From the IMG/VR virus record IMGVR_UViG_2534682295_000017: a stretch of DNA of 8,139 bases; one strand, written 5' to 3'. Made by a program: the position numbers and the translations under genes. The DNA comes from a virus (lineage: Duplodnaviria; Heunggongvirae; Uroviricota; Caudoviricetes). The notes below the pieces were generated by a model. The model saw only the letters and a program-made list of their open reading frames with translations, had not been told where the DNA came from and searched no databases. Below are positions 2,306 through 2,917 of this stretch, one piece after another; the stretch's first letter is position 1; every line of letters begins with the position of its first letter.

Positions 2306-2359
2306 AATTTAGAATAGCCTAAGAGTTATGGTCAAGCTTTTTGTGTAGAAAAACCTAAG
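2306..2359 (-). promoter_or_regulatory. leftward promoter with DicA-type operator half-sites (OL-like)
   Basis: Minus-strand -35 TTGACC (plus 2330-2335), 18-bp spacer, -10 TAAATT (plus 2306-2311). Operator-like TTAG-N6-CTAA at 2309-2322 and GTAG-N6-CTAA at 2345-2358 share the half-site motif of the dicA/dicC operators. Confidence 0.4.
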
Positions 2360-2433
2360 CTTCTTGATGTAAAAAACACAAGTATTTGAAAGTTTGTGCT
2401 TTTTATTACAGAGAGTTGCGAAAAAAAGGGGGG

Positions 2434-2841
2434 TTATTTATTTGCGCTTCTTTTGCGAGCTTTGAGTAGTTCTTCAAAAAGTTTGTTGAAATTCTCAACT
2501 CGAGCACGCATCTCTGACAACAGAGCCTTTTGCTCTGACTCAGGCAGTGCGTCGAACAGTTGAAGCAACTCTTTTTGATCTTCTGTCAGATTGACTGGCT
2601 GATTATCTGGGATCGGTTCGCCTGGTTGCTTATCTTCATCTCCAAAAAGAAGCCAAGTCGGCGAGCACTGAAGCGCCTGGCTCAGTGCGAATAATCTCTT
2701 CCCCGCTGGCTGTGTTTCATCTCTTTCCCATTGAGAAATTGTTACGTGAGCGACTTTGACCAGCTTACCTAATGCGGCCTGAGACAGTTTTAATTTTTTT
2801 CGCCTGTATAAGAGGCGAGCACCGAAGGTTTCGTTTTTCAT
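2434..2841 (-). CDS. dicA: DicA-like XRE-family HTH repressor (135 aa)
   Basis: N-terminal HTH (LSQAALGKLVKVAHVTISQWERDETQPAGKRLFALSQALQCSPTWLLFGDE) and the C-terminal NFNKLFEELLKARKR tail resemble DicA, and the 135-aa length matches. It is divergent from a Cro-like gene. No SD precedes the ATG, and a TAGAAT -10 sits about 9 bp upstream, which suggests a leaderless mRNA. Confidence 0.85.
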   Translation of the reverse strand: MKNETFGARLLYRRKKLKLSQAALGKLVKVAHVTISQWERDETQPAGKRLFALSQALQCSPTWLLFGDEDKQPGEPIPDNQPVNLTEDQKELLQLFDALPESEQKALLSEMRARVENFNKLFEELLKARKRSANK

Positions 2842-2917
2842 ATTAGGTAATTCTAATTTTTCTTGACTTAGGTTTCTCTACGATCTAGTTTCCTTAGGAA
2901 AATCTAAGGGTTTCGAT
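2842..2917. promoter_or_regulatory. divergent immunity switch with three phased operators (OR-like)
   Basis: Sites aTTAGgtaattCTAAt (2842-2857), cTTAGgtttctCTAc (2867-2882) and ccTTAGgaaaatCTAAgg (2892-2909), with TTAG starts at 2843, 2868 and 2894. Rightward promoter -35 TTGACT (2863-2868) and -10 TAGTTT (2886-2891) overlaps the middle site. Confidence 0.6.

Follow-up and report, generated by a model that had tools for sequence, protein, structure and literature searches.

The immunity locus of lambdoid prophage Sp9 in Escherichia coli O157:H7, a probable heteroimmune orthologue of the Qin DicA/DicC switch

What kind of switch is formed by a short repressor gene that is flanked on both sides by TTAG-N6-CTAA palindromes, and how could such a repressor be inactivated? 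The stretch of DNA analysed here (8,139 nucleotides, hereafter the window) is ~99.97% identical, end to end, to prophage Sp9 of E. coli O157:H7 Sakai, and its sequence identifies the locus as the lysis-lysogeny control (immunity) region of this lambdoid prophage. Phage records 99.6% identical to the window annotate the repressor gene and its neighbour as dicA and dicC, and 751 of 5,426 complete E. coli genomes carry the DicA/DicC immunity type. We consider it very probable that the locus is a heteroimmune orthologue of the Qin DicA/DicC switch, with repressor binding and bistable control inferred for Sp9; Qin is a cryptic prophage of E. coli K-12, and its immunity locus and dicBF operon are treated by Bejar et al. 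1988 (cited in PMC10448788). As a switch, the Sp9 locus is ordinary, the features of the family being already established for Qin, CP-933P or Sp9 itself. Its value lies mainly in annotation, as five short sites and three promoters become assignable in a common O157:H7 prophage, and the site definitions, together with class-specific outer bases, offer a ready design for testing operator discrimination by DicA-type repressors. Searching the literature for ECs1764-1767, the locus tags in Sakai, returned no match. Gene identities, sites and their statistics, conservation, covariation, promoter geometry and fold come from the present analysis, while the literature on the orthologue or on Sp9 is the source for binding to Oc, bistability, a leaderless start, the action of Rem and mitomycin non-induction. 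The genes of the region are the following.

278-1799, minus strand: leftward cargo, comprising a YdfC homologue (1581-1799), a DicF-like sRNA (641-690) and a DicB homologue (278-466), from homology
2434-2841, minus strand: repressor gene ECs_1765 of Sakai Sp9, DicA family, 135 aa, from the open reading frame and homology
2918-3145, plus strand: Cro-like gene, DicC homologue ECs_1766, 75 aa, from P22_Cro and DicC homology
3129-3680, plus strand: YdaT-family gene, 183 aa, in the position of lambda cII, from a YdaT_toxin match (3e-5, 24.8 bits)

Over 131 of its 135 residues the repressor shares 63% identity with K-12 Qin DicA (E 6e-62), in a family whose members are all 130-140 aa, so that the DicA-type assignment of the preliminary description holds for the full length of the protein. 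The Cro-like gene that it proposed, transcribed divergently across a 76-bp intergenic region, is confirmed by P22_Cro (PF14549; 3e-13, 49.7 bits) and by 83% identity to K-12 DicC, and a Shine-Dalgarno-like AAGGG lies 7 nt upstream of this gene. The repressor itself consists of a P22 c2-like helix-turn-helix (HTH) domain (residues about 2-69), a linker and a C-terminal helical hairpin (87-134). Its N-terminal domain matches HTH_3 in Pfam (4e-14) and is of the 434/P22 type, with a match to P22 c2 (E 1e-21), the AlphaFold model (pLDDT 85) gives a Foldseek match to the HTH fold with an rmsd of 0.5 A over 66 residues, and the C-terminus is predicted to fold into two helices. Repressors that are cleaved with the help of RecA, such as lambda CI and P22 C2, have a C-terminal S24 peptidase with a Ser/Lys dyad and an Ala-Gly site in the linker. 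The Sp9 repressor gave no Pfam match to Peptidase_S24 and no S24 structure among its Foldseek matches, and its linker has no Ala-Gly cleavage site, the sole Ala-Gly (residues 46-47) lying inside the HTH domain. The S24 domain is therefore missing, as had been noticed, and a repressor of this kind offers RecA no direct means of inactivation; the further claim that induction does not proceed through RecA autocleavage is thus upheld, and was already published for Sp9 in a 2009 report that the repressor has no peptidase domain and that Sp9 is induced spontaneously and not by mitomycin C.

The control elements on either side of the repressor gene are listed in order of position.

2306-2335, minus strand: leftward (PL/dicBp-like) promoter, -35 TTGACC (2335-2330), 18 nt, -10 TAAATT (2311-2306), from a consensus scan
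2309-2322, no strand: left operator 1, TTAGAATAGCCTAA, over the spacer and -10 edge of the leftward promoter, from a perfect match, the matrix and conservation
2345-2358, no strand: left operator 2, GTAGAAAAACCTAA, 9 bp upstream of the leftward -35, from a one-mismatch match, the matrix and conservation
2843-2856, no strand: right site next to the repressor ATG, TTAGGTAATTCTAA, over the repressor -10 and predicted start, from a perfect core match
2850-2855, minus strand: repressor (PRM-like) -10 TAGAAT, with a poor -35 GAGAAA (2878-2873), from sequence and conservation
2863-2891, plus strand: rightward (PR-like) cro promoter, -35 TTGACT (2863-2868), 17 nt, -10 TAGTTT (2886-2891), from sequence, Qin alignment and conservation
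2868-2881, no strand: middle right site TTAGGTTTCTCTAC, one mismatch, in the cro promoter spacer, from the one-mismatch search and the matrix
2894-2907, no strand: right operator nearest cro, within the perfect 18-bp palindrome CCTTAGGAAAATCTAAGG (2892-2909), with the top matrix score of 21.1 bits

Perfect matches to TTAGNNNNNNCTAA occur at 2309-2322, 2843-2856 and 2894-2907, three against 0.10 expected, a count reached in one of 200 shuffles, and a one-mismatch search adds only 2345-2358 (GTAG...CTAA) and 2868-2881 (TTAG...CTAC). All five matches (at most one mismatch) of the 8139-base window are thereby confined to two short regions flanking the repressor gene. The half-site matrix scan suggested in the preliminary description, run by leave-one-out on the surrounding 20 kb, placed each site 5th of 20,102 positions, directly behind the other four, with scores of 17.8-21.1 bits vs 7.2 bits for the best non-site; no further site above 7.2 bits was found in these 20 kb as a candidate for a third left operator (the Qin literature speaks of three). 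Of the earlier account of the sites, the right-hand phasing of about 25 bp stands (25 and 26 bp), while only two of the three right sites keep an intact TTAG-N6-CTAA core, the middle one having a mismatch. Similarly, of the two left sites, 36 bp apart, that were said to overlap the leftward -35/-10 pair, the first does so and the second falls upstream of the -35. Across 33 and 54 distinct relatives, the half-sites and -35 elements are conserved and the spacers and inter-site DNA are variable; in the 54, left operator 1 forms a conserved island beside 8-9 bp of hypervariable sequence, and left operator 2 is a conserved island as well.

Which protein occupies which Sp9 site, and in what order, we can only infer. 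The site 2894-2907 begins 2 bp past the cro promoter -10 and would thus cover the expected start site; its half-sites are conserved in relatives, and it is the positional homologue of Qin Oc (TTGTTAGTCATAACTAACAA), which is bound by DicA in vivo and has a TTAG-N6-CTAA core in which one base change in CTAA abolishes DicA binding. The palindrome at 2892-2909 is accordingly placed here as the predicted primary repressor site. In the Qin in vivo assay only Oc was bound, and Oa and Om, each alone, were not, so that the two repressor-proximal right sites of Sp9 may need cooperativity or serve another protein. Taken further, this leads to a refinement of the switch model rather than an alternative to it, namely that only 2892-2909 and the two left sites are repressor operators, with 2843-2856 (the equivalent of Qin Oa and lambda OR3) conserved mainly as the repressor -10 and start and as a DicC site, and 2868-2881 at most a weak, cooperativity-dependent site. 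Besides the Qin binding data, this finds support in the near-invariance of 2843-2856 across all specificity classes, including those whose other operators differ, in a Sp9 DicC that is 93-95% identical to the DicC of loci with repressors and operators of another class, and in the retention of only the left half of the middle site by Qin-class loci. On the other hand, 2843-2856 is a perfect TTAG-N6-CTAA palindrome, which promoter function alone does not need, and the middle site shares with left operator 2 an imperfect half and nearly the same spacer, being identical at 13 of 14 positions to its reverse complement (an inverted repeat, 93% complementary) and having a CTAC half that is conserved within the specificity class; moreover, the textbook repressors of lambda and P22 bind all three right operators cooperatively. 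We therefore regard the reduced set as possible, though somewhat doubtful, and retain all five sites as operators in what follows.

The specificity classes themselves are apparent from the outer operator bases, which covary with the helix-2 sequence of the repressor on both sides of the repressor gene. All 36 of the distinct site-set entries with SQ(A/S)AL in helix 2 show CTTAG..CTAAG, and eight of the nine with TQR show GTTAG..CTAAC, the ninth, from Yersinia, keeping only a CTAACA half. In mEp460, where helix 3 differs, the sites to either side of the gene read TTGAG-N4-CTCAA. These counts reflect perhaps five independent lineages per class, with several helix-2 residues changing together, and a second viral-contig scan for enlarging the GTTAG class yielded only 99-100% identical copies. 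Sp9 has SQAALGK in helix 2 and CC/GG as outer operator bases vs TQRSLAK and TG/CA in Qin, and its immunity specificity is predicted to differ from that of Qin. A more speculative extension, which we think unlikely but worth stating, is that the first residues of helix 2 set immunity specificity, with Gln-Ala/Ser reading C and Gln-Arg reading G 5' of TTAG, and that DicC and the repressor-proximal site are common to heteroimmune classes. If true, the DicC of one prophage, possibly also its Rem, might act in trans to turn on other DicA-type prophages in the same cell, which would give the switch an inherent and so far undescribed asymmetry.

The predicted start of the repressor transcript is a further point of agreement with Qin. 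Between TAGAAT (2855-2850) and the repressor ATG (2841, minus strand) there are 8 nt, which confirms the hexamer of the preliminary description and shortens its gap of about 9, and from this distance the mRNA would start within about 2 nt of the AUG, with the A at 2843 as the predicted start and a 2-nt leader. As was also described, the ATG has no Shine-Dalgarno sequence before it, either in Sp9 or in any of 44 distinct related intergenic regions; in all 44 the repressor ATG follows a TAnnnT hexamer at a distance of 8-9 nt, and in 42 of them cro has a Shine-Dalgarno-like sequence. In Qin, the mapped 5' end of the dicA mRNA is the final A of the CTAA half-site, 3 nt ahead of the AUG, and corresponds to the predicted Sp9 start base; the Reg-Seq paper reported no active dicA start in its mutagenised window. 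Sequence and analogy are both consistent with a leaderless Sp9 repressor mRNA (leader 0-3 nt). A different origin of the mRNA, mainly from an upstream minus-strand promoter that depends on CII (YdaT) or acts by read-through, in or beyond cro, would give a long leader. The poor predicted repressor -35 would fit such an origin, as would the YdaT/CII-like gene after cro, since YdaT activates the repressor operon in CP-933P (PMC8630535), and textbook lambda has PRE besides PRM. However, it would still leave the ATG without a Shine-Dalgarno sequence in all 44 relatives, the Qin start was mapped in exponentially growing cells, the paaR2 mRNA of CP-933P is leaderless by 5' RACE and N-terminal sequencing (PMC8630535), and both promoters could coexist as in lambda, making a mainly long-leader transcript improbable. 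A leaderless start is thus the more probable one. With regard to the promoters, a consensus scan called the leftward promoter only and missed those of cro and the repressor because one hexamer of each is weak, the cro -10 TAGTTT matching the consensus at only three of six positions; both assignments therefore rest on Qin alignment and conservation. Relatives conserve the cro -35, which falls on the dicC promoter in an alignment with Qin, where the dicC start has been mapped. The leftward -35 pairs with sequence ahead of Qin ydfA, and this promoter is conserved in close relatives.

A reading of the region as something other than an immunity switch starts from the names of two Pfam families, as the Cro-like and YdaT-like genes match YdaS_toxin (18.8 bits, cut-off 30) and YdaT_toxin (24.8 bits) and could form a YdaS/YdaT toxin-antitoxin pair with the palindromes as its autoregulatory operators. 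This is very improbable: P22_Cro scores better for the small protein (49.7 bits), YdaS and YdaT have been shown to be Cro and CII analogues and not a toxin-antitoxin pair (PMC8630535), and the same sites recur at a second promoter 0.5 kb off, beyond the repressor gene, which fits an immunity region. The Pfam 'toxin' names were rejected for both genes, YdaS_toxin being below cut-off and YdaT being the CII analogue of the sibling prophage CP-933P (PMC8630535). Least probable of all, and next to negligible, is that the sites are chance palindromes of AT-rich intergenic DNA with no regulatory role, for although the core has only 8 specified bases and ~2.7 matches with at most one mismatch are expected per whole window, only ~0.07 are expected in the ~200 bp of flanks around one gene that hold all five, and the leave-one-out ranks, the phylogenetic footprint, the way in which the outer bases follow the repressor and the agreement with an operator defined by mutation all argue against chance.

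On the preferred reading as an immunity switch, dimers of the 135-aa repressor would bind 18-bp palindromes with a TTAG-N6-CTAA core. On the right, occupancy of 2892-2909 and 2868-2881, over the cro start region and spacer, would turn off the rightward operon, which runs from cro and ydaT into the O-like and P-like replication genes. The left sites, 2309-2322 and 2345-2358, lie one on each side of the dicBp-like -35, and their occupancy would turn off the ydfC/dicF/dicB operon. The repressor gene would be transcribed from a weak promoter, with the mRNA starting within about 2 nt of the AUG and translated independently of a Shine-Dalgarno sequence, and 2843-2856, on the repressor -10 and start, is the likely spot at which the Cro-like protein or excess repressor would lower repressor expression. 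Turned down in this way, the circuit would be bistable. As the repressor is not open to direct inactivation by RecA, switching is expected to be stochastic or to depend on a Rem-type antirepressor. A homologue of Rem with 72% identity, ECs_1774, is encoded just outside the window, ~5.4 kb rightward and beside hok as in Qin, and by analogy it is the likely induction route of Sp9; no LexA box (CTGT-N8-ACAG, at most one mismatch) was found in the 220 bp upstream of it.

Several known systems share parts of this layout. In Qin, DicA and DicC form a bistable switch, DicA is without a RecA cleavage site and Rem acts as antirepressor (PMC3441716, PMC10448788). Sp9 resembles Qin in gene order and orientation, in operator core and positions at both promoters, in the -10-to-ATG geometry, in the YdfC, DicF and DicB homologues downstream, in having no peptidase domain and in its Rem homologue; besides specificity, it differs in that Qin ydfA/ydfB are replaced by an unrelated 99-aa ORF, and in that Sp9 keeps its replication, lysis and most morphogenesis genes, excises and is packaged, while Qin survives as a remnant. 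CP-933P (Sp12), from the O157:H7 lineage as well, has a short repressor, PaaR2, with a leaderless mRNA, 18-bp palindromes with half-site GTTTAGTAA and a TTAG-N6-CTAA core in a divergent region of <100 bp and at a PL-like promoter, YdaS/YdaT-type Cro and CII analogues, and demonstrated bistability, the layout having been confirmed by 5' RACE, footprinting and reporters (PMC8630535). Unlike the Sp9 repressor, however, PaaR2 is reported to be of low similarity to DicA and is co-transcribed with the ParE2 toxin-antitoxin pair, and four intergenic and three PL repeats are reported vs three and two in Sp9 (PMC8630535).

Likenesses extend to the classical lambdoid switches. The N-terminal domain of the Sp9 repressor shares 62% identity with the DNA-binding domain of P22 c2, the 18-bp operator sets at divergent PR/PRM and at PL and the proposed bistable repressor/Cro logic are those of P22 immC (c2/cro) and lambda cI/cro, and the leaderless repressor mRNA predicted for Sp9 has a counterpart in lambda cI. 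In contrast to P22 and lambda, the Sp9 repressor has a roughly 50-residue helical hairpin in place of the S24 autocleavage domain, there are two left sites vs three, and the leftward operon shows no recognisable gene for an N-type antiterminator. The Gifsy-1/-2/-3 repressors (GfoR, GtgR, GfhR) are likewise short, non-cleavable lambdoid proteins, inactivated by small antirepressors encoded outside the immunity region, and DicA was grouped with Gifsy-type repressors by the authors of that work (PMC3121763); the Gifsy antirepressor genes are LexA-controlled, whereas no LexA box was found before the Sp9 Rem homologue and Sp9 is not induced by mitomycin C.

The leftward operon also resembles that of Qin, its YdfC and DicB homologues being 94% and 89% identical; the DicF-like sRNA, at 43.5 bits (E 1e-7), falls short of the Rfam gathering score. 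One further element separates the left operators from the repressor stop codon.

2370-2405, minus strand: A/U-flanked hairpin, from an inverted repeat and a fold of -10.3 kcal/mol, z -2.96

This hairpin is a putative (bidirectional) terminator that might insulate the dicBF-like operon from repressor transcription, a weak assignment. In the conserved leftward leader, RNAalifold found almost nothing on an automatic alignment, and a hand-specified two-hairpin structure gained modest support only. Further downstream on the leftward strand, Sakai Sp9 carries an exonuclease gene, xis and int.

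The repressor gene of the window is flanked on both sides by operator-like sites of the TTAG-N6-CTAA type, as part of a DicA/DicC-like switch. O157:H7 E. coli genomes match the whole window end to end, and its counterpart in strain Sakai, which differs by only about two single-base indels, is the early part of Sp9, a lambda-like prophage inserted next to ompW (the coordinates of locus L001 are therefore the window's plus 6001 in the region of interest). The two central genes are annotated as dicA and dicC in phage records (99.6% identity over 2200-3150), and this immunity type was found in 751 of 5,426 complete E. 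coli genomes (coverage at least 80%), mostly once per genome. The features are as follows.

2434-2841, minus: repressor, 135 aa, HTH_3 domain and nothing else
2918-3145, plus: Cro-like gene, P22_Cro family, 83% identity to DicC
after the Cro-like gene, in the cII position: YdaT-family gene
after the YdaT-family gene: O-like and P-like replication genes
leftward of the repressor: YdfC homologue, 94% identity
641-690, minus: DicF-like sRNA upstream of the DicB homologue (Rfam RF00039, 43.5 bits, E 1e-7)
leftward of the repressor: DicB homologue, 89% identity
7721-7870 (+) and 7811-8023 (+): hok/sok-type toxin-antisense RNA module, with sok (RF01794, 103.9 bits) and a Hok-like ORF ending ...RKDLCEVRIRTGQTEVAVFTAYEPEE
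L001:14245-14502, about 100 bp past the right end of the window: Rem homologue, 72% identity to Qin Rem, beside hok/sok

Perfect TTAG-N6-CTAA matches lie at 2309, 2843 and 2894, three against 0.10 expected (one of 200 shuffles reached three), and a one-mismatch search adds solely 2345 (GTAG..CTAA) and 2868 (TTAG..CTAC). All five are confined to the 76-bp divergent region and a stretch of roughly 130 bp past the end of the repressor gene; by chance, these two stretches would hold about 0.07. The matrix scan proposed in the preliminary description, with an 18-bp palindromic matrix built from four sites and the fifth scored over 20 kb of prophage, ranked each held-out site 5th of 20,102 positions; with the five-site matrix, the sites score 17.8-21.1 bits versus 7.2 bits for the next best position in the 20 kb. 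The total is five sites, not six. Since the middle right and distal left sites are identical at 13 of 14 positions as reverse complements, what looks like a ‘defect’ in them, GTAG/CTAC, is something they have in common and not noise. The site sets on both sides of the repressor are real and were well read in that description.

The closest characterized relative is Qin, a cryptic K-12 prophage (PMC10448788; PMC3441716). Turned to the window's orientation, Qin has a positional counterpart of every Sp9 site: Oc, TTGTTAGTTATGACTAACAA, adjoins dicC after its -10; Oa, AGTTAGCTAATGCTAAAT, stands directly at the dicA ATG; and downstream of dicA a conserved TTGACC -35 has a TTAG/CTAA-type site on either side. 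In vivo repression by DicA through Oc is lost with one A-to-C change in CTAA, and Oa and Om each alone show no DicA binding; direct evidence thus exists for Oc alone. Published work calls the Qin locus ‘similar to lambdoid immunity loci’; both of its promoters carry sets of operators, and its repressor has no Ala-Gly site. Given the leftward YdfC, DicF and DicB homologues, the leftward promoter of Sp9 is the counterpart of Qin dicBp; the DicF-like sRNA escaped the default Rfam scan because the gathering score of its family is 48. The first ORF of the leftward operon (ECs_5719; 1871-2170, minus, 99 aa), without a match in a Pfam search, stands where Qin has ydfA/ydfB, and the hok/sok module holds the same place relative to rem as hokD in Qin. 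Between the replication genes and hok lies a moron, paa (6774-7532, plus), an AcfC-family adhesin with an SBP_bac_11 domain.

Conservation was examined in 93 homologous loci, taken from genomes and from viral contigs, which yielded 44 distinct intergenic regions. Within the window's specificity class, conservation covers the half-sites and the -35 hexamers but not the N6 spacers or the inter-site DNA, most clearly on the left, where the two sites, and in close relatives also the -35, are constant and the 8-9 bp between proximal site and -35 change freely. Across classes, the outer operator bases track repressor type: helix 2 SQ(A/S)AL accompanies (C/T)CTTAG..CTAAGG at the cro-proximal site and CTAAG on the left in 36 of 36 distinct site-set entries, TQR accompanies TGTTAG..CTAACA in eight of nine (the ninth, from Yersinia, has the CTAACA half only), and phage mEp460, with another recognition helix, carries TTGAG-N4-CTCAA on both sides. 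No other computational evidence speaks as well for recognition of the sites by the repressor as this two-sided covariation; it is limited by the small number of independent lineages, about five per class, and by several helix-2 residues changing together.

The Sp9 region itself is mosaic. Its DicC is 93-95% identical to those of Escherichia ruysiae and E. albertii prophages (loci L010/L011), whose repressors are 66% identical to Sp9's and whose operators are of the GTTAG class; the recombination joint seems to fall between the middle and cro-proximal operators. This pairing of one-class repressor and operators with a DicC like the other class's hints that DicC may read features common to both.

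Along its full length the repressor has 63% identity to K-12 DicA, and the segment 2-69 corresponds to the DNA-binding domain of P22 c2 (E 1e-21). An AlphaFold model (pLDDT 85) fits the P22 c2-operator complex with an rmsd of 0.5 A over 66 residues, and continues after the HTH domain with a predicted linker and helices 87-98 and 101-134. Domain search and predicted fold agree on the absence of an S24 peptidase, bearing out the short DicA-type repressor first proposed. A truncated protein is ruled out, since some 300 homologues from Enterobacterales are uniformly about 130-140 aa long. Its Foldseek list also contains HTH proteins that have helical C-termini and are bound by small antagonists, namely SinR/SinI and the arbitrium phage repressor/AimX; with high-rmsd alignments, this likeness would be an architectural analogy only.

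Lacking that domain, the repressor cannot be induced through RecA autocleavage, as correctly noted before and already in print: Asadulghani et al. list Sp9 among Sakai prophages with peptidase-less repressors, and report that it excises spontaneously with no further induction by mitomycin C. In Qin, the small protein Rem antagonizes DicA, and about 1% of cells undergo a spontaneous flip of the DicA/DicC pair that requires neither RecA nor Rem. The Rem homologue probably inactivates the window's repressor; no LexA box was found in the 220 bp upstream of this homologue. The class of short repressors with antirepressors was defined on Gifsy phages, and DicA was placed there (PMC3121763).

The repressor mRNA was also proposed to be leaderless, which the relatives and the mapped Qin orthologue support. 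On its strand, the sequence before the start reads TAGAAT-TACCTAAT-ATG; a TAnnnT hexamer ends 8 or 9 nt before the ATG in 44 of 44 distinct relatives (TAGAAT in 41), and a Shine-Dalgarno-like tetramer at -16 to -4 occurs in none of the 44, versus 42 before cro. Differential RNA-seq put the start of the Qin transcript 3 nt ahead of the AUG (Fig. S1 of the same paper shows an RLM-RT-PCR analysis), making dicA one of five leaderless E. coli mRNAs in the study; a second paper also names it among known leaderless genes. The mapped base is the last A of a CTAA half-site, 7 nt after TAGCAT, and its equivalent, window base 2843, predicts a 2-nt leader.

The repressor promoter has a poor -35 (GAGAAA), as does lambda PRM, and in Qin dicA expression is raised by DicA sitting on Oc. 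Only 7 bp separate the repressor -10 from the cro -35 (TTGACT, 2863-2868), and DicA-type stimulation may in part come from silencing the strong cro promoter, which would otherwise compete with that of the repressor. Because its -10, TAGTTT, resembles the consensus poorly, the cro promoter escaped the promoter scan; its position agrees with that of the Qin dicC promoter, whose start is mapped. The scan did pick up the leftward promoter, TTGACC-18-TAAATT. An A/U-flanked hairpin (-10.3 kcal/mol, z -2.96) lying between the stop codon of the repressor gene and the left-hand sites might perhaps end repressor transcription ahead of the toxic dicBF genes.

All elements of the Sp9 switch have published counterparts, and the kind is thoroughly characterized. 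For example, the O157 sibling prophage CP-933P shares the TTAG-N6-CTAA core, in footprinted 18-bp palindromes; its repressor is leaderless, matching operators stand at its PL-like promoter, and its bistability has been demonstrated (PMC8630535). Three incremental additions are not yet in print: the particular set of Sp9 sites, the C-versus-G outer-base difference tied to helix-2 type, and the combination in Sp9 of one-class repressor and operators with a DicC 93-95% identical to the other class's.

The 5' leader of the leftward transcript (2236-2300, minus) is conserved in Escherichia, Klebsiella, Enterobacter, Citrobacter and Buttiauxella, and a search of Rfam found nothing for it at E<=1. 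The RNA could fold into a pair of small hairpins, GACACC-GCAC-GGUGUU and CGCU-ACCC-GGCG; across 10 diverse sequences 72% of cells pair versus 27-43% in slid controls, with eight compensatory cells. A put-like antitermination element or a processing site would be our guesses. Furthermore, about five iterons of type ACACCCAAAAAC lie at 3938-4134 inside the O-like gene, presumably the prophage replication origin, and amid them, at 3983-3998, is a perfect LexA-box-like palindrome, CTGTTAATAAAAACAG.
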